Part shown: one piece after another, positions 866-14,260 of the stretch
Position numbering within the stretch: the first letter of the stretch is position 1
Layout: each line of letters starts with the position of its first letter
Made by a program: the position numbers and the translations under genes
Source of the DNA: Geotalea daltonii FRC-32
GTDB taxonomy: Bacteria; Desulfobacterota; Desulfuromonadia; Geobacterales; Geobacteraceae
Length of the DNA: 32,000 bases
Direction: 5' to 3'
Assembly: GCF_000022265.1 (NCBI RefSeq)
Contig: NC_011979.1
Location: 330,001-362,000 of the forward strand
Notes under the pieces: model-generated
Told to the model about the DNA's origin: nothing
The model's input: the letters and a program-made list of their open reading frames with translations, nothing else
Databases searched by the model: none

Positions 866-1286
866 ACACCCATTACGCACGCAGACCGGGTGGCCGCCCA
901 GATGGGTCGAGCCGTTGAATACAGGGGAATGGGACGCTTTTCCCGGGAGTGTTGAAAAGAAGGTAGGGGGAGTTTTTACCGCCGGCAAGAGTGAATGGGA
1001 GCGTTCCAGACTATGACATGTGCTCCATTATGGAACAGTCCACGTGTGCCATTTCAGAACAAAGTTCATTAAACAAAGATTGCCAGGGGGCAGTCGTTGA
1101 GGTCCAACCGCCTATTTTTACAGCTGCTTGCCCCATATGTTTCCAGAAATATGGTGGCTGGTAAAATTGTTGGTATAGGGTTTGCGGTATAGTAAAAAAA
1201 CGTTTTAGAAAACCGTATGCAGGAGATGGTTCAAGGCACAAAAAACCAATGTGGTTGATTCCACAAAATACAAAGGAGGAGCAACA

Positions 1287-2450
1287 ATGGCATTAGCAGA
1301 ACAGACGTACGGATTTTTCATTCCAACAGTTTCATTGATGGGGATAGGTTGCTCCAAGGAAACGGGGGCCCAGGCCAAGGCGCTGGGTGCGACGAACCTG
1401 CTCATTGTCACTGACGCCGGTCTGTCCAAGATGGGGGTCGCCGACAAGATCAAGGCCCAGCTGGTGGAAGCCGGTCTGAAAGCGGTAATTTTCGACGGCG
1501 CCGAGCCCAACCCCACCGACAAGAACGTCCATGATGGCGTCAAGGTCTACCTGGACAGCAAGTGTGACGGGATCGTTTCCCTGGGTGGCGGCAGCTCCCA
1601 TGACTGCGGCAAGGGGATCGGCCTGGTCATCGGCAATGGCGGCAACATCCGCGACTTCGAAGGGGTCAACAAGTCCACCAAGCCCATGCCCCCGTTCCTG
1701 GCCATCAATACCACCGCCGGCACCGCTTCCGAGATGACCCGCTTCTGCATCATCACCAACACCGATACCCATGTGAAGATGGCCATCGTCGACTGGCGCT
1801 GCACACCGAACATTGCCATTAACGATCCGGTCCTCATGGTGGGCAAACCCCCCGCACTCACCGCTGCCACCGGTATGGACGCCCTGACCCATGCCGTTGA
1901 GGCCTACGTCTCCACCATCGCCACCCCCATTACCGATGCCTGCGCCATCAAGGCAATTGAGCTGGTCGCCGCCAATCTGAGCGTGGCCGTAGCCAACGGC
2001 GACAACCTGGAAGCCCGCGATGCCATGGCCTATGCCGAATATCTTGCCGGCATGGCCTTCAACAACGCCAGCCTGGGCTATGTCCATTCCATGGCCCACC
2101 AGCTGGGGGGGTTCTACAATCTGCCCCACGGCGTCTGCAACGCCATCCTGCTGCCCGCCGTCAGCCAGTTCAACCTGATTGCCTGCCCGAAACGCTTTGC
2201 CGACATCGCCGTTGCCCTGGGTGAGAACATCGCCGGTCTTTCCGTGACCGAGGCGGCAGAAAAAGCCATCAGCGCCATCCGCAAGCTCTCCGCCTCCATC
2301 GGTATTCCTGCCGGTCTGAAAGAGCTGAACGTCAAGGAAGAAGATTTGAAGATCATGGCCGAGAACGCCAAGAAAGACGCCTGCCAGCTGACCAATCCAC
2401 GCAAAGCGACGTTGGAGCAGGTGATCGACATCTATAAGGCAGCGATGTAA
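1287..2450 (+). CDS. Iron-containing (group III) alcohol dehydrogenase
   Basis: ATG 1287 follows AAAGGAGGAGCAACA; track start 1251 has no SD. MALAEQTYGFFIPTVSLMGIGC..., GGGSSHDCGKG and the HSMAHQLGG...PHG metal-ligand region are typical of the Fe-ADH (FucO/Adh4-like) family. Confidence 0.9.
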   Translation: MALAEQTYGFFIPTVSLMGIGCSKETGAQAKALGATNLLIVTDAGLSKMGVADKIKAQLVEAGLKAVIFDGAEPNPTDKNVHDGVKVYLDSKCDGIVSLGGGSSHDCGKGIGLVIGNGGNIRDFEGVNKSTKPMPPFLAINTTAGTASEMTRFCIITNTDTHVKMAIVDWRCTPNIAINDPVLMVGKPPALTAATGMDALTHAVEAYVSTIATPITDACAIKAIELVAANLSVAVANGDNLEARDAMAYAEYLAGMAFNNASLGYVHSMAHQLGGFYNLPHGVCNAILLPAVSQFNLIACPKRFADIAVALGENIAGLSVTEAAEKAISAIRKLSASIGIPAGLKELNVKEEDLKIMAENAKKDACQLTNPRKATLEQVIDIYKAAM

Positions 2451-2654: not shown

Positions 2655-2671
2655 GCGATTTTAATTCATGT

Positions 2672-2768
2672 ATCATCTCCGAGCCGTGCAGCCTAACAGG
2701 TTCCCTCATGGTGCCCGGCCTACGGGTTTCGCTGGAAACGGCGGGGCCTCCCTTTCGGAAAGGAGTAA
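2672..2768 (+). promoter_or_regulatory. Moco/Tuco-class riboswitch aptamer, copy A (Moco RNA motif)
   Basis: Conserved blocks: CUCCGAGCC (2677-2685), GCUGGAAACGGC hairpin with GAAA loop (2731-2742), GCCUCCC (2747-2753) and GGAAAGGAG (2757-2765). CUCC 2677-2680 pairs with GGAG 2762-2765 (P1). It sits upstream of the tungstoenzyme gene aor. Confidence 0.8.
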
Positions 2769-2813
2769 GCAAGCCCTTGCGGGTAAACACTATGATTGGG
2801 AGAAGATAAAGAA

Positions 2814-4544
2814 ATGGACAAGATTTTACGCGTCAACATGACCGACCTCACCACCAGGACCGAGCCGGTACCGGCCGCCTGGGCCGGTTTGGGGGGCCGT
2901 GCCCTTACCTCCACCATTGTTGCGGCCGAAGTGCCTGCCACCTGCCATGCCCTGGGTGAGAACAACAAGCTGGTCTTTGCCCCCGGGCTTCTCACCGGTA
3001 CCCCTGCCGCCAACTCAGGCCGCCTCTCTGCAGGGGCCAAGAGCCCGCTTACGGGCACCATCAAAGAATCGAACGCCGGCGGCACTGCGGCCCAGATGCT
3101 GGCCCGCCTTGGGGTCAAGGCCCTGATCATCGAGGGGCTGCCCAAAGCGGACAAGTGGTACAGCCTCCATGTCTCCAAGGACGGCGTCACTGTGCAGGAG
3201 GAGAGCGAGCTGATCGGCAAGGGCAACTTCGCCGTCATCGAGGCACTGGAAGCCCGCCTCGGCAAGAAGACCGGCATCCTCACCATCGGTCCGGCAGGTG
3301 AGCTGAAGATGACCGCCGCCAACATCTCGGTCAAGGACCCGGACAGCAAGATCCGCAGCCATGGCCGTGGCGGGCTGGGGGCCGTCATGGGTTCCAAGAA
3401 GATCAAGTTCATCACCATCAATGACGAAGGGGCACCGGGCGTGAAGATTGCCGACCCGGAGAAATTCAAGGTGGCCGCCCGCACCTTTGCCAAGGCGCTC
3501 CTGGATCATCCGGTCAGCGGCGAGGGGCTCCCCACTTACGGCACCAACGTTCTCGTCAACATCCTCAACGAGGCGGGGGGGCTGCCGACGAAAAACTTCA
3601 CCCTCGGCCAGTTCGAGGGGCACGACAAGATCTCGGGTGAGACCTTGCACGATACCATCGTTGCCCGCGGTGGCAAGCCGAAGCACGGCTGTCACGCCGG
3701 CTGCATCATCCAGTGCTCCCAGGTCTACCACGACAAGGATGGCAAGTACGTTACCTCCGGTTTCGAATACGAGACCATCTGGGGGCTCGGCGCCGACTGC
3801 TGCATCGACAACCTGGATGACATCGCCCTGGCGGACAACATCATGGACGATATCGGCGTCGATTCCATCGAGACGGCGGTCATGTTCGGCGTGGCCATGG
3901 AGGCAGGCATTCTTTCCTTTGGCGACAGCAAGGAGATGCTGCGCCTGCTCAGGGACGAAATCGGCACAGGCACACCCCTCGGCCGCATCCTGGGTGGCGG
4001 CGCCGCCAGCGTCGGCAAGGCCTACGGCGTTACAAGGGTCCCGGTGGTGAAGAACCAGGCGATTCCCGCCTATGACCCCCGTTCGGTCAAGGGGATCGGC
4101 ATCACCTACGCCACTTCCACCATGGGAGCGGACCACACCTCCGGTTACACCATCGCCACCAACATCCTTAATGTGGGAGGTTTCGTCGATCCGTTGAAGA
4201 AGGACGGCCAAGTCGAGCTTTCCCGCAACCTGCAGATTGCCACCGCAGCCGTCGATTCCACCGGCATGTGCATCTTCGTCGCCTTCCCGGCCCTGGATAT
4301 TCCCGAATGCCTTCCCGCCCTGATCGACATGATCAATGCCCGCTTCGGCATCTCGCTTACCGGGGACGATGTCACCGACCTGGGAAAACAGGTGCTGAAG
4401 ACCGAGCGCCAATTCAATATCGAGGCGGGCTTCACCAAGGAGCACGACCGTCTGCCCGAGTTCTTCAAGACGGAGCCGGTGGCGCCTCACAATGCGGTCT
4501 GGGACTTCAGCGATGAGGAAATCGACGAGTTCTGGAACTTCTAA
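2814..4544 (+). CDS. aor: Tungsten-containing aldehyde:ferredoxin oxidoreductase (AOR family)
   Basis: MDKILRVNMTDLTTRTEPVP... is a typical AOR N-terminus. The AOR N-domain is followed by the Cys-rich HGCHAGCIIQC segment and the distal DSTGMCIFVAF cluster-ligand region. ATG 2814 has a GGGAGAAG SD; track start 2796 is a TTG. Confidence 0.9.
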   Translation: MDKILRVNMTDLTTRTEPVPAAWAGLGGRALTSTIVAAEVPATCHALGENNKLVFAPGLLTGTPAANSGRLSAGAKSPLTGTIKESNAGGTAAQMLARLGVKALIIEGLPKADKWYSLHVSKDGVTVQEESELIGKGNFAVIEALEARLGKKTGILTIGPAGELKMTAANISVKDPDSKIRSHGRGGLGAVMGSKKIKFITINDEGAPGVKIADPEKFKVAARTFAKALLDHPVSGEGLPTYGTNVLVNILNEAGGLPTKNFTLGQFEGHDKISGETLHDTIVARGGKPKHGCHAGCIIQCSQVYHDKDGKYVTSGFEYETIWGLGADCCIDNLDDIALADNIMDDIGVDSIETAVMFGVAMEAGILSFGDSKEMLRLLRDEIGTGTPLGRILGGGAASVGKAYGVTRVPVVKNQAIPAYDPRSVKGIGITYATSTMGADHTSGYTIATNILNVGGFVDPLKKDGQVELSRNLQIATAAVDSTGMCIFVAFPALDIPECLPALIDMINARFGISLTGDDVTDLGKQVLKTERQFNIEAGFTKEHDRLPEFFKTEPVAPHNAVWDFSDEEIDEFWNF

Positions 4545-4561
4545 ACAATGGTAAAACCCCT

Positions 4562-4593
4562 GTCCCCCGGCGTCATCGATGATGCCGGGGGAC
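4562..4593 (+). other. 32-nt near-perfect palindrome/hairpin between aor and the moaD-like gene
   Basis: GTCCCCCGGC-G-TCATCGATGA-T-GCCGGGGGAC. The 10-bp GC-rich outer stem encloses the self-complementary TCATCGATGA. No U-tract follows. Confidence 0.8.
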
Positions 4594-4612
4594 ACCAGTA
4601 TGTGAGGCTATC

Positions 4613-4837
4613 GTGAATATTACCGTCAAACTATTTGCCACCTTCAGAAACGGCCGGTTCAAGATCGACAACCAGGAGTGGCCTGAAGGGACGGATTGCC
4701 GCAGGATCGTTGCCAGCCTGGGGCTTACGGAAGAGGAGATCGGCATCGTCCTGATCAATGGCCGGCATGTTCCCCTGGAGCAGCAGTTGGCGCAGGCCGA
4801 TACTCTTTCACTTTTCCCGCTGGTAGGAGGGGGTTGA
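4613..4837 (+). CDS. MoaD/ThiS-family small sulfur-carrier-like protein (C-terminal GG)
   Basis: 74 aa with a GTG start and a GAGG SD. A ubiquitin-like small protein ending ...LFPLVGGG, the hallmark of MoaD/ThiS carriers. Its stop lies 1 nt before the thiF-like start. Confidence 0.75.
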   Translation: MNITVKLFATFRNGRFKIDNQEWPEGTDCRRIVASLGLTEEEIGIVLINGRHVPLEQQLAQADTLSLFPLVGGG

Positions 4838-4838
4838 T

Positions 4839-5687
4839 ATGGATGCAGTGCTGCAGTACCTGTGGAGCAAGGCGGAAGGGGACCTTGTGCCCTGGTCTGC
4901 CCAATCGGAAGCGGTCCGGCAGTTCGGCTTGAGCTACGGGCAAGTGGAAAGCCTGATCCTGGAGAAGGGGCTGTTGCCAGCCCGCTACCAGCGCAACCGC
5001 ACCACGGTTTCCACCATCGAGCAGCGACAGCTGTTCAACAGCCGGGTGGCGGTCATCGGCTGCGGCGGCCTGGGGGGCTACATCATCGAGGAACTGGCCA
5101 GGCTGGGGGTCGGGCAGATTGTCGCCATCGATCCGGACATCTTCGAGGAACACAACCTCAACCGACAACTGTTTTCGAGCCCCCATGCCCTCGGCAAGCC
5201 TAAGGTTGAGGCTGCTGCGGCCCGCGTCAGCGAGATAAATCCGGCGGTCAACCTGGTACCGGTCCAGGAGGCTTTCACCACCGCCAACGGGAAGCAACTC
5301 CTGCAGGGGGTGACGGTTGCGGTCGACGCCCTGGACAGCATCGCCTATCGCCTGGAACTGGCGGAAGTTTGCAGCGAGATGGACATCCCCATGGTCTACG
5401 GGGCCATCGGCGGCTGGTACGGCCACGTTGCTACCCAGCTGCCGGGGGACACCACCATCCAGCGCACCTATCGCAACTGGGTGGAAGGGAAGGGAATCGA
5501 AAAGCAGCTGGGCAACCCCTCCTTCACTCCGGCGGTGGTAGCGAGCCTGCAGGTGGCGGAGGTCTGCAAGATCCTCCTCGGCAAAGGGGAGCTCCTGCGT
5601 CATCGGAAGTTAAGCATCGACCTCCTGGAGATGGAGATTTTCGATGTCTCGTATGCGGCGCTTGCGGAGCTGGTGCGTGCGGCGTAA
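4839..5687 (+). CDS. ThiF/MoeB/HesA-family E1-like adenylyltransferase
   Basis: VAVIGCGGLGGYIIEELARLGVGQIVAIDPDIFEEHNLNRQ is the Rossmann/ATP motif of the ThiF/MoeB family. It has a roughly 65-aa N-terminal extension and no CxxC pairs. It appears translationally coupled to the MoaD-like gene. Confidence 0.85.
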   Translation: MDAVLQYLWSKAEGDLVPWSAQSEAVRQFGLSYGQVESLILEKGLLPARYQRNRTTVSTIEQRQLFNSRVAVIGCGGLGGYIIEELARLGVGQIVAIDPDIFEEHNLNRQLFSSPHALGKPKVEAAAARVSEINPAVNLVPVQEAFTTANGKQLLQGVTVAVDALDSIAYRLELAEVCSEMDIPMVYGAIGGWYGHVATQLPGDTTIQRTYRNWVEGKGIEKQLGNPSFTPAVVASLQVAEVCKILLGKGELLRHRKLSIDLLEMEIFDVSYAALAELVRAA

Positions 5688-5761: not shown

Positions 5762-6190
5762 ATGAACATCAGTGCGAGAAATCTCCTGTCGGGCAAGGTT
5801 ACAACGGTCAGAAAAGGGGCAATAAACTCCGAGGTTGAACTTTCCCTTGATGGAGGGGAAACGATTGCAGCGGTCATTACCAATGCCAGCCTGGAAGAAA
5901 TGGGAATCAAGGAAGGCATGGAGGCATTCGCCCTTGTCAAGGCCCCGCTGGTTATTATCGCCAAGGGAAACACCGGGCTCAAATTCAGCGCCCGTAACGT
6001 CCTGCAGGGCACGGTCAAGAAAATCGCACAGGGCAGTGTCAATGCAGAGATCTCCATACAACTGCAGGGGAGTGGTATCATCACCTCCATCATCACCAAA
6101 GGGAGCGTCGCTGCCATGGCATTGCAGGAAGGGGATCAGGTCAGCGCCATCTTCAAGGCCTCCAGTGTCATACTTGCCGTAAAGGCATAG
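5762..6190 (+). CDS. mop: Di-Mop (tandem TOBE) molbindin, molybdate/tungstate-binding protein
   Basis: ATG 5762 follows GAGGAGG. There are two repeats, each starting with the Mop signature (NISARNLLSGKV... and KFSARNVLQGTV...). The track ORF from 5369 is an artefactual extension that overlaps the thiF-like gene. Confidence 0.85.
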   Translation: MNISARNLLSGKVTTVRKGAINSEVELSLDGGETIAAVITNASLEEMGIKEGMEAFALVKAPLVIIAKGNTGLKFSARNVLQGTVKKIAQGSVNAEISIQLQGSGIITSIITKGSVAAMALQEGDQVSAIFKASSVILAVKA

Positions 6191-6196
6191 GGCCGA

Positions 6197-6233
6197 TTTA
6201 CTGCTTGACAGATTAATGACATAATGGTACTAG
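6197..6233 (+). promoter_or_regulatory. Candidate sigma70 promoter(s) ahead of riboswitch copy B
   Basis: Option 1 is TTGACA (6205-6210), 17 nt, TACTAG (6228-6233). Overlapping option 2 is TTTACT (6197-6202), 17 nt, CATAAT (6220-6225). Confidence 0.45.
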
Positions 6234-6257
6234 TTTACCACAATTGAATGCTCGAAC

Positions 6258-6354
6258 TTTCTCCGAGCCTGTCCGCCTACCGGGAATATTCCCCATGGTG
6301 TCAGGCCTGTGGGCTCTGCTGGAAACGGCAGGACCTTCCTTTGAAAAGGAGAAC
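6258..6354 (+). promoter_or_regulatory. Moco/Tuco-class riboswitch aptamer, copy B
   Basis: CUCCGAGCC (6261-6269), a CUGCUG-GAAA-CGGCAG hairpin, and AAAAGGAG (6344-6351). The P1 extension UUCUCC/GGAGAA covaries with copy C. The core reads GACCUUCC where copies A and C have GCCUCCC. Confidence 0.75.
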
Positions 6355-6380
6355 CTCTCGCCACGCTATGATTGCGTTCT

Positions 6381-6416
6381 AGGGGCTCCTTTATCCAAAG
6401 GAGCCCTTTTTGTTTG
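6381..6416 (+). terminator. Intrinsic terminator forming the expression platform of riboswitch copy B
   Basis: AGGGGCUCCUUU-AUCC-AAAGGAGCCCU is followed by UUUUUGUUUG. Its 5' arm CUCCUUU (6386-6392) is also complementary to the aptamer's 3' strand AAAGGAG (6345-6351), which gives a P1/antiterminator/terminator arrangement. Confidence 0.8.
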
Positions 6417-6469
6417 TGGCTGATCACGTGCTTCGAACATGACTTCAAAACCAGATAAATGATTCTCAA

Positions 6470-6563
6470 CTCTCCGAGCCACGCCGCCTAAAGGGTAGTT
6501 TTCCCATGGCGACCGGCTAGGGTGCCGCTGGAAACGGCTGTGCCTCCCTTTTGGAAAGGAGAG
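6470..6563 (+). promoter_or_regulatory. Moco/Tuco-class riboswitch aptamer, copy C
   Basis: CUCUCCGAGCC (6470-6480), the GCUGGAAACGGC hairpin, GCCUCCC (6542-6548) and GGAAAGGAGAG (6553-6563). P1 CUCUCC/GGAGAG is 6 bp. The porin start lies 116 nt downstream. Confidence 0.8.
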
Positions 6564-6678
6564 CCTCAAAGTACCGGACCTGTTCCTGTATCCAAAGGCC
6601 TCTTTCCATCTGCGGACAGACTCTTTGATGCATTTGGGGGAGACCTTTTCCCCTGTTATTAGAAAACAGGAGGGTACG

Positions 6679-7920
6679 ATGAAGAAACGCAGCTTAGCAG
6701 CAACAGTGGTGGCAATGGGCCTGGTGCTCATCCCGGGTGTTCATGCCAAAACGCTTGAGGATGTGCTCAAGGAGAAAGGGGTCATCACCGAAGAGGATTA
6801 CAAGGAAGTAACCAGGAGCAAGGCGCTGAATTACAAGCCGGGCAAGGGGTTCACCCTGACCTCTGCCGACGAAAAGTTTCAGCTTTCTTTGGGAGGAAGG
6901 CTCCAGACCCGTTACACCTTCACGGATGCCGACGACAACGGTACCAGCAGGGACTCCAACAAGTTTGAGGTCAAGCGCATGAAGTTCTGGCTGAATGGCT
7001 ACGCCTACACCAAGGACCTCACTTACCTGCTCCAGGTGGATTTTGTTCAGGGTGGCTCATCGAAGCTCCTGGATCATGCCTACCTGAATTACCGGTTTGT
7101 CGACGAAGCTCAGGTTCTGGCCGGGCAGACCAAGGTGCCGTTCGGCCGGCAATGGCTGAATTCTTCCGGTTCCCAGCAGTTCGTCGACCGCTCCACCGCT
7201 TCGGACATGTTCCGCCCCGGTTATGAGGCTGGAGTCAAGGTTCACGGAGCTGTGGCCGGCGGCATCGCCACCTACGAGCTGGGTTATTATGGCGGCGCCG
7301 GCCAGAGTACCTTCCGTACCTCCAACGACAATGCCTATGCCGCCAGGATAACCGCAAACCCATTCGGTAAGATGGCCTATGCCGAAGGGGACCTGGATCA
7401 GAGCGAAAAACCTCTCCTTTCGGTGGGAGCCAACTATTATCGTAATACCCTGCAGAAAAGCACAGCTACCGCCTTCGAAACCAACAATGTTACGTTAGCC
7501 GGTTCAACCGGCTGGCTCGGCAAAGGAATTGGTACCTTTGCAAACGGGGAAAAGATCGACATCAACGGCTACGGCGTCGATGCCGCTTTCAAATGGCTTG
7601 GCGCCTCCACCCAGGCCGAGTACCTGTTGGGGCAGGCCGACGGCCACACCAGCGACAAGACCCTCCGTGCCCACGGCTTCTATGCTCAGGCCGGTTACTG
7701 CATCATTCCGAGGAAACTGGAGCTGGCCTTCCGCTACTCCTTCGTCGATCCCAACCGGGACAAGGCCAACGATCAGCAGGTCGACACCCAGGGAGCCATT
7801 TCCTACTATTTCAACAAGCACAACCTGAAGCTGCAGGGGGATGTCACCAACAGCCACGACCAGAGCAAAGGCCGAACGGATGATATGATCTATCGCCTCC
7901 AGGCACAGGTGATCTTTTAA
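6679..7920 (+). CDS. Outer-membrane anion porin, phosphate-selective porin O/P (OprO/OprP)-like
   Basis: ATG 6679 follows AGGAGGG. Signal peptide MKKRSLAATVVAMGLVLIPGVHA. Alternating beta-strand pattern and a C-terminal ...YRLQAQVIF with terminal Phe, typical of OM beta-barrels. FQLSLGGRLQTRY and FEVKRMKFWLNG resemble the Porin_O_P family. Confidence 0.65.
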   Translation: MKKRSLAATVVAMGLVLIPGVHAKTLEDVLKEKGVITEEDYKEVTRSKALNYKPGKGFTLTSADEKFQLSLGGRLQTRYTFTDADDNGTSRDSNKFEVKRMKFWLNGYAYTKDLTYLLQVDFVQGGSSKLLDHAYLNYRFVDEAQVLAGQTKVPFGRQWLNSSGSQQFVDRSTASDMFRPGYEAGVKVHGAVAGGIATYELGYYGGAGQSTFRTSNDNAYAARITANPFGKMAYAEGDLDQSEKPLLSVGANYYRNTLQKSTATAFETNNVTLAGSTGWLGKGIGTFANGEKIDINGYGVDAAFKWLGASTQAEYLLGQADGHTSDKTLRAHGFYAQAGYCIIPRKLELAFRYSFVDPNRDKANDQQVDTQGAISYYFNKHNLKLQGDVTNSHDQSKGRTDDMIYRLQAQVIF

Positions 7921-7934
7921 AAACAGTTAAAAAG

Positions 7935-7954
7935 ACAGGGGGCTTGCCCCCTGT
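7935..7954 (+). terminator. Hairpin after the porin gene (weak terminator or attenuator)
   Basis: ACAGGGGGC-UU-GCCCCCUGU is followed by UUCCC and preceded by AAAAAG. The U-tract is poor. Confidence 0.35.
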
Positions 7955-8042
7955 TTCCCGGAAAACCTTACCCCTCCACTCCAGAACAAATACGGGCAGA
8001 TTCGGATAAAATGTAAGTAACTTATGGGAAAAGGAGAAAACA

Positions 8043-8855
8043 ATGAAACAGTGGCGTATCCTTTTATTAACATTGACCTCCCTTGCTTTCTTCTGCGCTT
8101 CGGCCGGAGCCGAAGAACGCCTGAAGATGTCCACTACCACTTCGACCCAGGATTCGGGGCTTTTGAAGGTGCTCCTGCCACCCTTCGAGAAGAAAAATAA
8201 CTGCCAGGTGGACGTTATCGCCGTCGGCACCGGCCAGTCCCTCAAGCTGGGTGAAGCTGGCGACGTGGATGTGGTCTTCGTCCATGCCAGGAAGCTGGAA
8301 GACAAATTCATTGCCGACGGTTTCGGCGTCAACCGCCGCGACGTCATGTACAACGATTTCGTCATCATCGGGCCGAAGGATGATCCGGCCGGAATAGCCA
8401 GGGCCAAAACCGCTGCCGAGGCGCTGCAGATGATTGCCGCCAAAGGAGCCACCTTTGTTTCCCGTGGAGACAAATCGGGAACCCACATCAAGGAAAAGGA
8501 TCTCTGGCAGGCGGCCGGAATTGCGCCGAAGGGGGGGTGGTATGTGGAGGCGGGCCAGGGGATGGGGCCGGTCATTACCATGGCAACCGAGCGCCGAGGC
8601 TACACCCTGACTGATCGCGGGACCTACAACGCTTTCAAGGGAAAGAAGACCGATCTGACCGTCCTCTTCCAGGGGGAGAAGGGGCTTTTCAATCCCTATG
8701 GGGTCATAGCCGTAAATCCCAGGAAACATCCCCATGTGAAGTACGACCTGGCAATGAAGTTTATCGAGTATGTGACCGGACCGGAGGGCCAGAAAATCAT
8801 TGCCGGTTACAAGGCATACGGGGAGCCGGTGTTTTTCATCTACGGCAAGAAGTAG
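8043..8855 (+). CDS. tupA: Tungstate ABC transporter periplasmic binding protein (TupA family)
   Basis: A signal peptide ending ASAGA, then KMSTTTSTQDSGLL, which carries the TTTS motif characteristic of TupA. PBP fold length is 270 aa. The SD is AAAGGAGAA. Confidence 0.8.
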   Translation: MKQWRILLLTLTSLAFFCASAGAEERLKMSTTTSTQDSGLLKVLLPPFEKKNNCQVDVIAVGTGQSLKLGEAGDVDVVFVHARKLEDKFIADGFGVNRRDVMYNDFVIIGPKDDPAGIARAKTAAEALQMIAAKGATFVSRGDKSGTHIKEKDLWQAAGIAPKGGWYVEAGQGMGPVITMATERRGYTLTDRGTYNAFKGKKTDLTVLFQGEKGLFNPYGVIAVNPRKHPHVKYDLAMKFIEYVTGPEGQKIIAGYKAYGEPVFFIYGKK

Positions 8856-8873
8856 CGCCATAAAGGCAGGCCT

Positions 8874-9587
8874 ATGCAGAACATCATCGAACTGCAAAAC
8901 GTAGCGAAGAATTATGGCAACACAATTGCCTTGCAGCTGAACCGGCTGGCCATAGGGGAGGGTGAGTTGTATCTTCTTGCCGGGCCGAACGGCTCCGGCA
9001 AGAGCACTCTTCTAAACATACTGGGTTTTTTGACTCGCCCGGATCGAGGGGAACTGCTTTTCTCCGGCGAGCGGGTCGATTGGAAGAGGGGAACAATGAC
9101 CCGTTTGCGCCGGCAAGTCACCCTTCTCCACCAGTCCCCCTACCTTTTTCGCGGCAACGTTTACGATAATGTCGCGTATGGCCTTTCCCTGCGAGGCATG
9201 GGAGGTGCCAAGGCACAGGAAGTTGTGTCTGAAACCCTGGCTACTGTCGGGCTTGACGGATTCCAATTGCGCAAGCACACGGAACTGTCGGGGGGCGAAG
9301 CCCAGCGGGTAGCCATGGCCAGGGCGCTGGCACTGAGGCCGAAGTTGCTGCTCCTGGATGAGCCGCTGGCCAACGTGGACCAGAAGAGCGCCCGCGTCCT
9401 TGAAGAAGTCATAGCCGGCCTCCCTTCCATGGGGACCACGGTGGTCATGTCTTCCCACGACCCGCAACATGAAAAAAAGCTTCCCTGCCAAGTGATCCAG
9501 CTGCAAGGGGGGCGGATGAATGCCGATCATCTGGATGAGACCGAGTCCCTTGGCAATCTGCTTGGCTATCCTGCTGTTCAGATCTGA
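8874..9587 (+). CDS. ABC transporter ATP-binding protein (TupC-like)
   Basis: Walker A GPNGSGKST, signature LSGGEAQRV, Walker B LLLLDEP and an H-loop SSHD. It starts 18 nt after tupA. No transmembrane subunit gene is adjacent. Confidence 0.85.
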   Translation: MQNIIELQNVAKNYGNTIALQLNRLAIGEGELYLLAGPNGSGKSTLLNILGFLTRPDRGELLFSGERVDWKRGTMTRLRRQVTLLHQSPYLFRGNVYDNVAYGLSLRGMGGAKAQEVVSETLATVGLDGFQLRKHTELSGGEAQRVAMARALALRPKLLLLDEPLANVDQKSARVLEEVIAGLPSMGTTVVMSSHDPQHEKKLPCQVIQLQGGRMNADHLDETESLGNLLGYPAVQI

Positions 9588-9654: not shown

Positions 9655-10876
9655 AGTGTGTCATCTCGCGTGTCTGCAACTCCACCTTCAGCCAGCCCGA
9701 CTGGCGCATGTCGAAGGCTCGATAGGCATCCACCGCCGAGGTGAGCGGTTCCCTCCTGGTCAGTATCCTGACCGGATCGACCGTGCCGCTTCTGACCATG
9801 TCCAGCAGGAACGGAATATATTTGCGATGGTTGCAGTTGCCCATCTTGATGGTGAGGTTCTTGTTCATGGCCATGCCGATGGGGAAAAGGGTCACACTCT
9901 CCGGATAAACGCCGATAACGGAGAAGGTGCCCGCCTTGGCCAGGCACTCCACCCCCCAGATGAGGGTCATGGATGGAGCATCGCCGGGATGCCAGTTGTC
10001 ACCGCTGATATTGGTCTGGGGTGCCACGTGGGCCACCTCCTGCCTGAATTCCTCTTCGTGTTCCTTCGCCTCCCTCACTGCCGGGCCAGTATGAGGCGCT
10101 TCAGCATCGACTCCGACGGCGTCGATGGCACGATCGCAGCCGATTCCCCCGGTCATATCCCGGATCATCTGCACCGGGTCCTCCTTGGAAAAGTCGATTA
10201 CCTCGGCTCCCTGTTCCCGTGCCTTTTCCAACCGCGAGGGGATGCAGTCAACGGCGAAGATCCTGCCGGCCTGGAATAGTTTGGCGCTGGCGATGGCGAA
10301 CTGGCCAACGGGTCCGCAGCCGAAGATTGCCACGGTGTTGCCCGGTTTTATCTCGGCCAGTTCCGCTCCCATGTATCCCGTCGGAAAGATGTCCGAGACC
10401 AGGATTGCCTGCTCGTCGGTGACACCGTCAGGAATTTTGACCAGGCCTACCCCGGCAAAGGGTATCCGCGCTTTCTCCGCCTGCAGGCCGTTGACGGGGC
10501 CGGATTTTTCTGGGCCGCCGAAAAAGCTGGTTCCGGCCTGCATGCCGTTTGGGTTGGCATTATCGCACTGGGCATAGTAGCCGTCCCGGCAATAGGAGCA
10601 ATAGCCGCAGGCTATGGTGGATGGAATAAGAACCCGGTCGCCAGGCTTGAAGTTGCGCACGGCAGTACCGACCTCTTCCACCGTGCCGACCCCTTCGTGG
10701 CCGAGAATGGTCCCCGGCCTCATCCCGCTCATGGTGCCGCGCACCATGTGGAGATCGGTGCCGCAGATGGCGCTGGCAGTTATCTTGACGATGGCATCGG
10801 TCTGTTGTTCGATCCTCGGCTCAGCGACATCATCCAGCCGGATGTCGCCCACTCCGTGCCACACAACTGCTTTCAT
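9653..10876 (-). CDS. Zn-dependent alcohol/formaldehyde dehydrogenase (glutathione-independent FDH-like MDR)
   Basis: MKAVVWHGVGDIRLDDV...ICGTDLHMVRG...GHEGVGTVEEVG, the structural-Zn Cys cluster CGYCSYCRDGYYAQC, and GCGPVGQ for NAD binding. The SD is GGGAGG. Confidence 0.85.
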   Translation of the reverse strand: MKAVVWHGVGDIRLDDVAEPRIEQQTDAIVKITASAICGTDLHMVRGTMSGMRPGTILGHEGVGTVEEVGTAVRNFKPGDRVLIPSTIACGYCSYCRDGYYAQCDNANPNGMQAGTSFFGGPEKSGPVNGLQAEKARIPFAGVGLVKIPDGVTDEQAILVSDIFPTGYMGAELAEIKPGNTVAIFGCGPVGQFAIASAKLFQAGRIFAVDCIPSRLEKAREQGAEVIDFSKEDPVQMIRDMTGGIGCDRAIDAVGVDAEAPHTGPAVREAKEHEEEFRQEVAHVAPQTNISGDNWHPGDAPSMTLIWGVECLAKAGTFSVIGVYPESVTLFPIGMAMNKNLTIKMGNCNHRKYIPFLLDMVRSGTVDPVRILTRREPLTSAVDAYRAFDMRQSGWLKVELQTREMTH

Positions 10877-12511: not shown

Positions 12512-14260
12512 CTAGAGCTTTGACATGGTGATGTCGGCGGTGCCGTTGCCGGTCTTAAGGTTGACGCCGGTTGCGCTTCCGGTTTCGGTGGTGTTATCCG
12601 GCTGAGCTGCGCTCCAGCCTAGGACGAACAGGTCATAGAAGGCGCCGGGCAGCGGTGCAGCGGTTGTTCCGCCAGGCAGGTTGCCGGTGGTGTAAGGATT
12701 ATCACCCACCTTGACCTTGTCGCTCAGATCCAGGGTGTCCACAAGGGTGCCGCCGTGGGTAATGAGCATGATTCCCTGGTCAAGCCCCGCATCCTTGACC
12801 GTGATCTTGCCGCTGATGGTTCTGGCCGTGGCCGGTGCCGAGATGGCCAGAGGGGTGAAAGCGATCAGCGGAGTCAGCGAACTGACATTTGTCAGCTGAC
12901 TGGCGTTGAACAGCTCTGCGGTGGCAATGGCTCTGAAACCGCCCAGCCCTTCGTTGGGAGTAACGGGGTTGAAGGTGATCGGTCCCCCATTGGCGAATGC
13001 TCCCACATGGAGCGGGCCTGAGGACAGCTCGATGGGAGTGCTGAAACTGCCGGTGGCACTGAAGGGATCGATGTGCCTGAAGCGGATCTCGTAGGGAACC
13101 GGGTCTGTGGGCAGGGTCTGGTAGAAAGTTATGGCAGCCCCGGCGGGTTTTGCATTTACGTCTACCGCATATTCAGTTCCTGTTGTAAGCCTGATTGGCC
13201 GGGAACTGACGGCGGTAGCCTGCTGCGGGTTGCCACCCTTGTGGACTTTGACACCATTGATGATGATTGTTTCCACGTTGCGCCCTCTGATGACCAGGTC
13301 ATAGGTGGCTGTGGTGGCGGTACCGAAAACCGGCAGCGGGTAAAGGGTGAACCGGCCGCTGCTGTCGATGCTCGTTGCGCGCCGGGCTTGGCGCAATGAG
13401 GTTGCCGGGTTTACCTGCTCGGCCTTGATGGTAAAATTCTTGCCCGTATAGTTCTGGAAGGCGGTCCTGAAGGAACTGCTCATATTGTTAAAGGCGCCGC
13501 TGATATTGCGGAAGGCACTGCTGGAATTGCCGAAAGCAGTTGCAGGAGGCACCAATGTGCCGGTTATGGCACCGGCGTTGTTCATGTCGAAATATCTCAG
13601 ACGGGCCTTGAGAATGAATTCCTTGGCTCTGGTCGGCACGGCGGCAAGATTCTGCGCCGATGACATCCGTCCCTGGCGGAAGATCTGCACCACGTCTTCG
13701 CCGACGTTGAAGTCCAGCGCCAGCTTCAGGTCGCCGCCGGCGACGATGATCGGCGTTTCCGGCAGAACCTTGATCCCCTGTCCGGGGGATGGAATGCGCA
13801 GAGGTACTTTATGTGCGCCGGTGCTGTCGGTATAGTCAACTTCGTTGTTGAAGGTGACCCCGCTGGGTAAGGAAGCCCGGGCTGGACCCTCGGTGGGGGC
13901 CAGGAAGACCCTGATCTGTCCATACTCGCCGGCGGGCAGGTTTAGTCCGCTCCAGACCTCCTGGGTCTGGCCGGCGGTGAGGGCGGCAAGATCGATGGTT
14001 CTTGGCGTTGACAGGGGAAACTTGATCCATCCGGCATCGGTGAGGTCGTCGGTATCCAGCTTGTGGAACCACGCTTCCGTTACCGTAATCCAGACATGGT
14101 CGTAGTTCAGGTCGGGTGCGTCGGTTATATGAATGCTGGCGGTACCGCTGGGTGTTGCTGCTGCGCCCCCTCCACCGCCACCGCATCCTGCTGTTAAAAG
14201 AGTTGTCATGGCAATGAACAATAAAATCACTTCCATCAAGCCGGGTCGTGCTTGTTTCAT
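12512..14260 (-). CDS. Large lipoprotein with DUF4382-like N-terminal domain
   Basis: ATG 14260 follows GAAAGGAGAA. Lipobox LLTAGC is followed by a Gly run. SIHITDAPDLNYDHVWITV resembles DUF4382. The rest is beta-rich and Thr/Gly/Ala-rich. Confidence 0.6.
   Translation of the reverse strand: MKQARPGLMEVILLFIAMTTLLTAGCGGGGGGAAATPSGTASIHITDAPDLNYDHVWITVTEAWFHKLDTDDLTDAGWIKFPLSTPRTIDLAALTAGQTQEVWSGLNLPAGEYGQIRVFLAPTEGPARASLPSGVTFNNEVDYTDSTGAHKVPLRIPSPGQGIKVLPETPIIVAGGDLKLALDFNVGEDVVQIFRQGRMSSAQNLAAVPTRAKEFILKARLRYFDMNNAGAITGTLVPPATAFGNSSSAFRNISGAFNNMSSSFRTAFQNYTGKNFTIKAEQVNPATSLRQARRATSIDSSGRFTLYPLPVFGTATTATYDLVIRGRNVETIIINGVKVHKGGNPQQATAVSSRPIRLTTGTEYAVDVNAKPAGAAITFYQTLPTDPVPYEIRFRHIDPFSATGSFSTPIELSSGPLHVGAFANGGPITFNPVTPNEGLGGFRAIATAELFNASQLTNVSSLTPLIAFTPLAISAPATARTISGKITVKDAGLDQGIMLITHGGTLVDTLDLSDKVKVGDNPYTTGNLPGGTTAAPLPGAFYDLFVLGWSAAQPDNTTETGSATGVNLKTGNGTADITMSKL

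Follow-up and report, generated by a model that had tools for sequence, protein, structure and literature searches.

Two aptamers of one Rfam family, B and C, follow one another in front of an operon for a porin and a TupA-like tungstate-binding protein in Geotalea (Geobacter) daltonii FRC-32, and the question arises whether the two report on different cofactors or act one after the other on the same signal. The sequence-only reading of this locus had proposed two complete riboswitches in series, whose non-identical cores might form a two-input gate (Moco versus Tuco). The features considered here are listed in Table 1, with positions in the window, i.e. the whole stretch of 32,000 nucleotides that was analysed.

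Table 1. Features of the tandem riboswitch leader and of the neighbouring genes in the window
Feature	Position	Strand	Evidence or remark
Aptamer A	2665-2779	+	RF01055, 62.5 bits; context only
Promoter-like region 5' of B	6205-6240	+	-35 TTGACA 6205-6210; promoter scan
Aptamer B	6249-6367	+	RF01055, 61.9 bits, E 9.6e-13; model positions 1-135, untruncated
B antiterminator	6345-6392	+	AAAGGAG 6345-6351 and CCUCU 6354-6358 with AGGGG-CUCCUUU 6381-6392
B intrinsic terminator	6381-6418	+	terminator scan; MFE and centroid folds
B-C spacer	6417-6459	+	no conserved element; 37% identity to Geotalea sp. SG265, least conserved segment
Aptamer C	6460-6577	+	RF01055, 61.6 bits, E 1.2e-12; model positions 1-135, untruncated
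C anti-P1 helix	6552-6608	+	P1 3' strand region 6552-6566 with 6596-6608 (GGCCUCUUUCC); constrained fold
Long-range helix burying the Shine-Dalgarno sequence (SD)	6571-6677	+	6571-6575/6673-6677 and 6579-6584/6665-6670; RNAalifold consensus, three Geotalea leaders
Hairpin GGGGGAG/UUUCCCC	6636-6653	+	sequence; in alifold consensus
Hairpin CCCCUGUU/AACAGG-A-GG	6650-6657 with 6665-6673	+	read from sequence
Porin SD AGGAGGG; start codon AUG	6668-6674; 6679-6681	+	read from sequence
Porin-tupA-ATPase operon	6679-9587	+	Pfam, NCBIfam, synteny table
Porin_O_P porin	6679-7920	+	Pfam; first gene of the regulated operon
TupA-like tungstate-binding protein	8043-8855	+	Pfam, NCBIfam
ABC ATPase	8874-9587	+	Pfam, synteny table; third gene of the operon

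The aptamers and the operon they precede

In the Rfam cmscan (RF01055 gathering score 36 bits), B and C both matched the model over its full length, which bears out the proposal of two complete riboswitches in series. Their starts are 211 nt apart, and no ORF lies between them. P1 is formed by 6259-6264 and 6348-6353 in B and by 6470-6475 and 6558-6563 in C. A, B and C alike lack the model positions of P3, which places them in the tungsten-associated (Tuco/Wco) subtype; in the aligned homologues P3 is replaced by 2-4 nt. All three aptamers also contain GGAAAC with the GAAA tetraloop of P4. In an alignment of 39 related aptamers, 91.2% of the cells were paired and 16 of the 30 pairs changed on both sides, values reached by none of 500 shuffles, and slid controls were paired to at most 51.5%. 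Covariation backs the helices P1, P2 and P4 as well as a short helix adjoining P1.

B and C are located 5' of genes of the Mo/W type, encoding a porin, a TupA-like binding protein and an ABC ATPase. The porin comprises 413 amino acids and matches the G. daltonii porin with 100% identity from end to end. The second gene product reached 250 bits with the NCBIfam TupA model, its sole NCBIfam match, which is under the equivalog cut-off of 400. A permease gene is absent from the operon according to Pfam, NCBIfam and the synteny table. Aptamer A precedes an operon for an aldehyde:ferredoxin oxidoreductase, a MoaD/ThiS, a MoeB/ThiF and a Mop protein (Pfam), in which the oxidoreductase with its AFOR_N and AFOR_C domains occupies 2814-4544. 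The neighbouring genes, namely the AFOR-family oxidoreductase and the TupA-like protein, point to the use of tungsten, and the ligand of B and C is presumably the tungsten pterin cofactor, as for the P3-lacking type. Ligand binding by P3-lacking aptamers was deduced solely from gene association (Regulski et al. 2008, Mol Microbiol 68:918, PMC2408646), and published genetics of cofactor-dependent repression concern E. coli moaA only (PMC2408646).

The pair is already known, since it was tabulated for this strain in 2008. The supplement of Regulski et al. (PMC2408646) lists Geobacter sp. FRC-32 with "RNA->RNA->Porin_O_P", where B is named Gsp-1-4, C Gsp-1-2 and A Gsp-1-5, and the contig offsets given there (9841, 13425 and 13636) match the distances in the window from A to B (3584) and from B to C (211). 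The aptamers are thus identical, both P3-lacking Moco RNAs in tandem; that work only lists the FRC-32 pair and does not describe platforms, a comparison of the cores or the evolutionary origin. The tandem examples in its main text are those of Syntrophomonas wolfei and G. metallireducens. The only riboswitch mentioned in a 2026 paper about G. daltonii and trace elements is a B12 riboswitch.

Transcription control at B and the start of the leader

For B, a transcriptional OFF switch had been read from four segments (CUCC 6261-6264, AAAGGAG 6345-6351, CUCCUUU 6386-6392 and AAAGGAG 6397-6403); all of them lie at these positions, and the terminator and antiterminator found by scan and folding agree with this reading. 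The stem of the terminator (6381-6408) consists of 12 bp, 6 of them G-C pairs, with a loop of 4 nt, and is followed by UUUGUUUGUG. For the nascent RNA from 6340 to 6396, the minimum free energy was -18.4 kcal/mol, with 6345-6351 paired to 6386-6392 and 6354-6358 to 6381-6385. A terminator whose 5' arm is complementary to the 3' strand of P1 follows nearly every homologous aptamer, and Geotalea sp. SG265 keeps a terminator at the site of B with an altered stem sequence. As modelled by these folds, B is a clear terminator/antiterminator OFF platform.

The promoter scan detected overlapping sigma-70-like sites at 6197-6244. The promoter-like region overlaps a perfect palindrome, TGGTA-N6-TACCA (6225-6240), which is unique within the window; three Geotalea species, G. 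metallireducens and the metagenome locus L113 carry it 5' of the first aptamer. This palindrome is a candidate operator. No terminator was found between the stop codon of the Mop gene (6190) and B, and therefore some transcripts may derive from the upstream operon.

It had also been considered that C possesses a weak promoter of its own (TTCGAA-18-TAAATG, 6432-6461). In that case B would be a terminated leader in its own right, or a small RNA derived from the riboswitch, and the two aptamers would not act in series. The hexamers can indeed be read in the sequence, and the terminator of B is strong, but no promoter-like site between 6417 and 6470 passes the promoter scan, G. toluenoxydans has other hexamers at this place, Geotalea sp. 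SG265 has a deletion of the -10 hexamer, and the spacer shows the lowest conservation of all segments (37%). In addition, the conserved promoter-like region and the palindrome sit 5' of B, no reading frame separates the aptamers, and a terminator followed by an aptamer is the usual order across about 27 tandem sets. The internal promoter is thus unsupported, so that, on the present evidence, B does not stand alone as a leader; we consider separate action of B and C very unlikely.

The leader of C and the proposed working of the pair

P1 of C begins 54 nt past the U tract of B, and neither the terminator scan nor the comparison with homologues and tandem sets revealed a canonical terminator after it, both in agreement with the sequence-only reading. 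The leader of C aligns to the terminator platforms of single riboswitches at the orthologous locus of G. metallireducens, which has one aptamer with a terminator, and at the loci L005, L007 and L008. Its anti-P1 helix is the homologue of the antiterminator and terminator 5' arm in these single riboswitches, while the complementarity of the 3' arm and the U tract have been lost. Between G. daltonii and Geotalea sp. SG265, identity amounts to 81% in the C aptamer, 76% in the C leader, 37% in the spacer and 64% at third codon positions of the porin gene; the value of the leader, compared to the latter two as neutral proxies, speaks for a functional platform under purifying selection. Judged from these alignments, the leader of C is a remodelled ancestral terminator that has been conserved.

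Two mutually exclusive hairpins around the porin SD (6636/6637-6653 and 6650-6657/6665-6673), the second of which buries it, had been suggested as the platform of C. Both can be drawn as described and are kept in two other Geotalea species, where one-sided changes preserve pairing in the hairpin 6636-6653 (G.U to G-C and G.U to A-U). The complementarity between leader and SD is, however, not above chance (144 of 1000 dinucleotide shuffles were equal or better), and SD-sequestering hairpins can therefore not be claimed as non-random. Nor is 6650-6657 the strongest anti-SD, since its duplex with the SD reaches -11.7 kcal/mol and that of 6571-6584, the best in the leader, -15.2 kcal/mol. The corresponding long-range helix encloses a central hairpin (6587-6632) and the hairpin 6636-6653; RNAalifold found no double-sided covariation among the three Geotalea leaders. 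In two-state constrained folding of C, the probability of an unpaired SD (bound/free) was 0.33/0.23, 0.33/0.33 and 0.20/0.50 in the three Geotalea species, so that no consistent change of SD accessibility was found and neither the earlier pair of hairpins nor the relay models are confirmed.

Two other routes were rejected. An "SD-mimic" that the central hairpin would release to titrate the anti-SD, GGACAG (6615-6620), is not conserved, the counterparts being GGAGAG in G. toluenoxydans and GGCAAG in SG265. A long-loop terminator of C (UCUUUCC with GGGGAGA, then UUUU) would reach about -11.6 kcal/mol with a tract of four U followed by CCCC and is missing from the alifold consensus; it is at most a minor possibility.

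According to these models, C probably acts on translation of the porin; its output could instead be Rho-dependent termination, or regulation could be weak or absent. It is also conceivable that C is decaying or largely redundant, the ancestral terminator having degenerated after B with its strong terminator was added upstream, so that B does essentially all of the regulation. The lost 3' arm complementarity and U tract, the lack of a clear switch in two-state folding and the chance-level SD complementarity would fit this explanation. Nevertheless, the aptamer of C scores as well as A and B, its sequence and its leader are conserved in SG265 to the extent given above, the leader more than the spacer and the third codon positions, and five unrelated tandems (L094, L106, L109, L115 and L105) likewise have no terminator after their last aptamer. 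A redundant C is therefore rather unlikely.

It is probable that B and C are two independent, complete P3-lacking riboswitches which share a promoter near 6205-6240 and serve as serial OFF switches on the porin-tupA-ATPase operon; for C, we infer the OFF direction and the pairing route, as well as the effect of the pair on the dose-response. When the cofactor is abundant, P1 of B would form and pre-empt the antiterminator (6345-6358/6381-6392), and the terminator stem with its U tract would halt transcription. Transcripts escaping B would reach C, which in the bound state would free GGCCUCUUUCC (6597-6607) from the 3' strand of its P1. The freed leader may then fold so that the SD is sequestered by pairing, most probably to 6571-6584, and translation of the porin would fall. 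The net result would be a tighter and steeper shut-off. In published terms, the modelled pair can be called "pseudo-cooperative": aptamers of one class lie in a single 5' UTR with a short gap and no intervening ORF, and B has its own platform, the terminator and antiterminator, while C may have one in its conserved leader with the predicted anti-P1 helix and the SD pairing options. Possibly it is also "bi-mechanism", with transcription controlled first and translation second.

Core differences, other tandems and the question of a second signal

The cores of B (GACCUUCC) and C (GCCUCCC) differ by one covarying base pair and one C.A mismatch, so that the difference noted from the sequence is real. 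The covarying pair is the outer pair of the 2-bp helix adjoining P1, which is U-A in B, formed by U6337 and A6344, and C-G in C. An alignment of the two core types, proposed earlier as a check, confirmed the difference but showed strict covariation at this pair, with U-A in 27 aptamers, C-G in 11 and an unpaired state in none. The mismatch concerns the fourth pair of P4, which is C.A in B, formed by C6314 and A6333, and U.G in most aptamers. In its protonated form a C.A wobble is an isostere of U.G. As far as the sequences tell, the changes U-A/C-G and C.A/U.G are structure-neutral substitutions and give no indication that specificity differs.

Of the two cores, the B-type is more frequent in Geobacterales, and six aptamers with the C.A variant make up a small B-like subfamily. 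A B-like aptamer is the sole riboswitch 5' of porin-tupA at the loci L013, L026 and L009, and a C-like one at G. metallireducens, L005, L007 and L008; the two types are thus interchangeable as single riboswitches at orthologous operons. Of about 25 porin loci with aptamers, 8 had a tandem, and in 5 of these 8 both members share the same core pair (L042, L011, L012, L029 and L040). About 20 further tandem sets from metagenomes were P3-/P3-, except for one P3+/P3+ set. No mixed P3+/P3- tandem occurred among the porin-locus tandems or these metagenome sets, a sample limited by the search pattern. In every tandem examined (about 27 sets), a terminator-like hairpin follows the first aptamer. The tandems at porin-tupA include pairs with terminators only as well as pairs of a terminator with a non-terminator platform, and they apparently arose more than once, since near-identical copies make up some of the pairs but not all. 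The porin locus of G. metallireducens, with its single aptamer, was discarded as the published tandem of that genome, which (Gme-1-4) sits 5' of an oxidoreductase, and the porin relatives P0005 and P0006 were discarded as intermediate forms, being paralogues in unrelated contexts.

For a two-input gate, B and C would have to differ in ligand, for example Moco versus Tuco, or clearly in affinity, so that the operon integrates two pools. The two core differences and the subfamily marked by C.A would agree with this idea, affinities may differ, and no paper on a three-dimensional structure of an RF01055 riboswitch was found in the literature searched. Both aptamers, however, lack P3, the sole published correlate of Mo versus W specificity, the U-A/C-G difference is perfect covariation, and the C.A mismatch would, from general RNA structural knowledge, be compatible with the usual U.G. 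The occurrence of either type alone at porin-tupA operons, the shared core pair in five of the eight porin-locus tandems and the absence of mixed sets among the metagenome tandems also speak against a gate, as does the relation of both adjoining operons to tungsten (aldehyde oxidoreductase and TupA-like protein). We attach very little probability to a gate in this sense. We hold it to be very unlikely, too, that the B-type (U-A, C.A) and the C-type (C-G, U.G) differ in specificity or markedly in affinity and form an integrator of two signals or two thresholds, whose second unit, once the first had been added, would have changed from a terminator into a translational platform.

The tandem of SAM-I and AdoCbl riboswitches upstream of metE in Bacillus clausii, which Sudarsan et al. 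are said to have described in 2006, reportedly works as a two-input NOR gate. The B/C leader resembles this tandem in carrying two complete riboswitches one after the other within a single 5' UTR. Unlike the metE gate, which combines two classes with different ligands, B and C belong to the same class and subtype and therefore lack the defining feature of a logic gate. Since such a gate requires aptamers for different ligands, of different classes or specificity subtypes, the comparison of the sequences makes a two-signal gate unlikely, and the pair is a same-class tandem and not a new logic gate.

Serial action on one ligand has closer parallels. Regulski et al. 2008 (PMC2408646) read the triple P3-less arrangement of S. 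wolfei as more "digital" control, and Sherlock et al. 2022 (RNA Biol 19:1059, PMC9481103), who define the pseudo-cooperative and bi-mechanism classes, list Moco and tungsten-cofactor (Wco = Tuco) tandems and class them as "pseudo-cooperative". As in these tandems, one-class aptamers stand in series, the upstream members have terminators, and the last aptamer is followed by a long gap without a terminator, for which a more digital response to one ligand was proposed. The sharper dose-response suggested for B and C earlier is thus the standard published reading of such tandems (Regulski et al. 2008; Sherlock et al. 2022) and would apply here by analogy. G. daltonii differs from S. wolfei in having two aptamers and the porin-tupA uptake operon as target. 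In the SAM-II/SAM-V tandem of Candidatus Pelagibacter ubique, as Poiata et al. 2009 is summarized in Sherlock et al. 2022, the first unit likewise uses a terminator, the second lies terminator-less just before the RBS, and both bind one ligand, whereas B and C are of one structural class and control of the RBS by C is predicted. The tandem TPP riboswitches of Bacillus anthracis are, as Welz and Breaker 2007 is cited in Regulski et al. 2008 and Sherlock et al. 2022, also two complete independent riboswitches for one ligand, with a steeper dose-response that was measured there; both members use terminators, unlike the B/C pair with its single terminator, for which a steeper response would be expected.

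New in comparison to the earlier listing is that tandems at the porin-tupA operon recur in several lineages. Furthermore, the platform of the second unit in Geotalea is visibly derived from the terminator of a single riboswitch of the ancestral type and provides a natural example of a platform changing its mechanism, and the U-A/C-G and C.A/U.G differences appear to be structure-neutral. The locus is a reasonable test bed for the response of P3-lacking aptamers to the tungsten cofactor.

Riboswitches and gene neighbourhood

Three aptamers of the Moco/Tuco riboswitch family, referred to as A, B and C, were detected in the window, all scoring above the family gathering score of 36. Stem P3 of the Moco motif is lacking in all of them, as the respective model positions are deleted in the Rfam alignments. 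The gene order was assigned by Pfam and NCBIfam.

Riboswitch aptamers and neighbouring genes in the window
Feature	Position	Strand	Remarks
Fe-alcohol dehydrogenase	1251–2450		5' of aptamer A
Aptamer A, RF01055	2665–2779	+	Rfam covariance model, full-length, 62.5 bits
AFOR-family aldehyde:ferredoxin oxidoreductase	2814–4544		3' of aptamer A
ThiS/MoaD-like protein			between AFOR-family gene and ThiF/MoeB-like gene
ThiF/MoeB-like protein	4839–5687
Mop protein, two TOBE domains	5762–6190		followed by aptamers B and C
Aptamer B, RF01055	6249–6367	+	Rfam covariance model, full-length, 61.9 bits, E 9.6e-13
Aptamer C, RF01055	6460–6577	+	Rfam covariance model, full-length, 61.6 bits, E 1.2e-12
Porin_O_P porin	6679–7920		3' of aptamers B and C; 100% identical to the porin of Geotalea (Geobacter) daltonii FRC-32
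TupA-like binding protein	8043–8855		sole NCBIfam match TupA, 250 bits, under equivalog cut-off
ABC ATPase	8874–9587

Aptamer A probably acts at the translation level too, since it has no terminator and the start codon of the oxidoreductase lies about 50 nt past the 3' strand of its P1 (2759–2816). No terminator was detected in the interval from the Mop stop codon to aptamer B (6190–6249), and transcripts of the upstream operon, under control of aptamer A, might read into B and C. In the Geotalea operon (window 8043–9587; Geotalea sp. SG265, L018, 4827–6402) the TupA-like gene is followed after an 18-nt gap by the ABC ATPase gene, without a permease gene, whereas G. metallireducens (L081, 6408–8708) and most other loci possess tupA-tupB-tupC.

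Expression platforms of B and C

The sequence-only reading had assigned a textbook OFF platform to B, and its coordinates for B were all correct when checked against the sequence. P1 of B is formed by 6259–6264 and 6348–6353 in the Rfam alignment. Both alternative structures were found by folding: the terminator, a 12-bp stem (6381–6408) followed by UUUGUUUGUG, dominated the MFE and centroid folds, and the nascent RNA up to 6396 adopted the antiterminator fold (-18.4 kcal/mol), in which AAAGGAG (6345–6351) pairs with CUCCUUU (6386–6392) and CCUCU (6354–6358) with AGGGG (6381–6385). As modelled, the platform of B is a standard OFF design.

P1 of C (6470–6475 with 6558–6563) begins 54 nt past the U tract of B. 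A separate weak promoter for C, as had been considered, is not borne out: a promoter scan of 6417–6470 gave no site, the candidate hexamers are changed in G. toluenoxydans, with the -10 deleted in SG265, and the B–C spacer is the least conserved segment, sharing 37% identity with SG265. Two elements upstream of B are conserved: TTGACA (6205) and the perfect palindrome TGGTA-N6-TACCA (6225–6240). Taken together, these observations make a single leader for B and C the simplest reading. In the comparison with SG265, aptamer C is 81%, the C leader 76% and the porin third codon positions 64% identical, and by these identities C is under constraint despite the missing terminator.

The palindrome overlaps the promoter before the first aptamer of the porin leader (window 6225–6240; L081, 4706–4721; L018, ~3040–3056; L113, ~13737–13752). 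It recurs in three Geotalea species, G. metallireducens (as TTGGTA-N6-TACCAA) and one metagenome tandem, and makes a candidate operator, at which a regulatory protein might act in addition to the riboswitches.

No canonical terminator was found 3' of C, as the sequence-only reading had stated. The orthologous locus of G. metallireducens contains one C-type aptamer and then a clean terminator, GGGGCCUCUUUCC-GUUU-GGAGAGAGGCCC-UUUUU, to whose region the C leader can be aligned (window 6540–6678; L081 4843–4930). The former 5' arm of the terminator, GGCCUCUUUCC (6597–6607), can still pair with the P1 3' strand of C in a constrained fold (6552–6566 with 6596–6608), and the 3' arm and U tract are remodelled. 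The C leader is homologous to the single-riboswitch terminator of G. metallireducens, and its expression platform appears to have been converted in the course of evolution.

The RNAalifold consensus of three Geotalea leaders contains a central hairpin (6587–6632) and a long-range helix (6571–6575 with 6673–6677, 6579–6584 with 6665–6670) that buries the porin Shine-Dalgarno sequence (SD, 6668–6674). Two mutually exclusive hairpins around the SD had been proposed previously, and both are possible as pairings. The first (6636–6653) is present in the consensus, where one-sided changes keep the pairing, but the second (6650–6657 with 6665–6673) is weaker than the long-range helix (-11.7 versus -15.2 kcal/mol). 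Translational control by C is likely according to these models; it is graded no higher because double-sided covariation was absent among the three leaders, which come from just three close relatives, because the complementarity between leader and SD was equalled in 144 of 1000 shuffles, and because constrained two-state folding of the C leader gave no consistent switch.

Distribution of the tandem arrangement

An alignment of porin homologues yielded 78 loci from the genome collection, among which a covariance model built on A, B and C detected 38 aptamers in 24 sources, including the window. With the G. metallireducens locus added, about 25 porin loci bear aptamers, which all lack a P3 insertion, and a TupA-like gene follows the porin at nearly all loci. 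Two aptamers 190–320 nt apart precede the porin at eight of them: the window, G. toluenoxydans (L025), SG265, Pelotalea chapellei (L042) and the MAG loci L011, L012, L029 and L040. The others have one aptamer at most ~600 nt upstream, except L003 (~1.3 kb). As the pairs of L029 and L042 are near-identical local duplicates and those of L012 and Geotalea dissimilar, the arrangement appears, by sequence comparison, to have arisen more than once. A terminator-like hairpin follows nearly all other aptamers that were examined, both members of the non-Geotalea porin-locus tandems included; among porin loci, the chief exception is Geotalea C. The porin of G. toluenoxydans (L025, 3501–4738) was recovered as two overlapping tblastn pieces (3501–4235 and 4181–4738), which suggests a frameshift or assembly error in the draft genome.

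When metagenomes were scanned with a pattern of two consecutive 5' cores, 34 loci matched, which resolve to ~20 distinct tandem sets. All lack P3 in both members except L105, which has P3 in both. A first member with and a last member without terminator also occur in L094, L105, L106, L109 and L115; this layout is not unique to the Geotalea locus.

In L093 (663–1414) four P3-lacking aptamers and in L088 (5635–6214) three are arranged serially, with a terminator-like hairpin after every unit; the quadruple exceeds the doublets and triplets reported for Moco riboswitches (Sherlock et al. 2022). L105 (369–710), the sole tandem of P3-bearing aptamers in the sample (133 nt each), precedes a TupA-like gene by 121 nt, an odd combination of Moco-type aptamers with a gene for a tungstate-type binding protein.

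Core differences and ligand specificity

From the non-identical cores of B and C, a possible two-input gate with different ligands had been suggested. The difference is real: the 2-bp helix adjoining P1 reads UC...GA in B versus CC...GG in C in the Rfam alignment. Among 39 aptamers its outer pair is U-A in 27, C-G in 11 and unpaired in none, a clean covarying pair by alignment, and the U-A version of B is the majority form in its clade. Furthermore, the "GAC" of B results in C.A at the fourth P4 pair (C6314.A6333; alignment columns 78 and 98), where 30 sequences have U.G. Six aptamers share C.A, namely B of the three Geotalea species (window, L025, L018) and those of L026, L013 and L009. In RNA structures generally, C.A wobbles are isosteric with U.G once protonated, and C.A in this B-like subfamily may be a protonation-dependent isosteric substitution. 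Genomic context argues that both types are interchangeable, because each serves as sole riboswitch before porin-tupA (B-like in L013, L026 and L009; C-like in G. metallireducens, L005, L007 and L008) and because, at porin loci outside Geotalea, the two members of a tandem share one core pair.

The P3-present/P3-absent split of the Moco motif, which correlates with Moco and Tuco genes, is the one feature published as correlating with specificity for Mo or W (Regulski et al. 2008, PMC2408646). As P3 is absent from B and C alike, the two-input reading is without support; no mixed pair occurs among the ~20 metagenome sets either, and we regard sensing of different ligands by B and C as very improbable. 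The best-supported explanation, which we consider probable, is a serial OFF switch for one ligand. Regulski et al. 2008, who described the motif, reported tandems in S. wolfei and G. metallireducens and read serial P3-less units as a means of more digital control. Moco and Wco tandems were placed among "pseudo-cooperative" systems by Sherlock et al. 2022 (PMC9481103), who term a terminator followed by RBS control, e.g. SAM-II/SAM-V, a "bi-mechanism" tandem.

The supplementary table of Regulski et al. 2008 lists for Geobacter sp. FRC-32 Gsp-1-5 at 9841, before COG2414-MoaD-ThiF-MopI, Gsp-1-4 at 13425 ("RNA->RNA->Porin_O_P") and Gsp-1-2 at 13636. Since these offsets, 3584 and 211, equal those from A to B and from B to C in the window, the exact tandem is already catalogued. 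Little of this is novel, as both the element and its occurrence in tandem were known for this strain; small additions are the apparent origin of the C platform from a remodelled terminator and the reading of the core differences as neutral.
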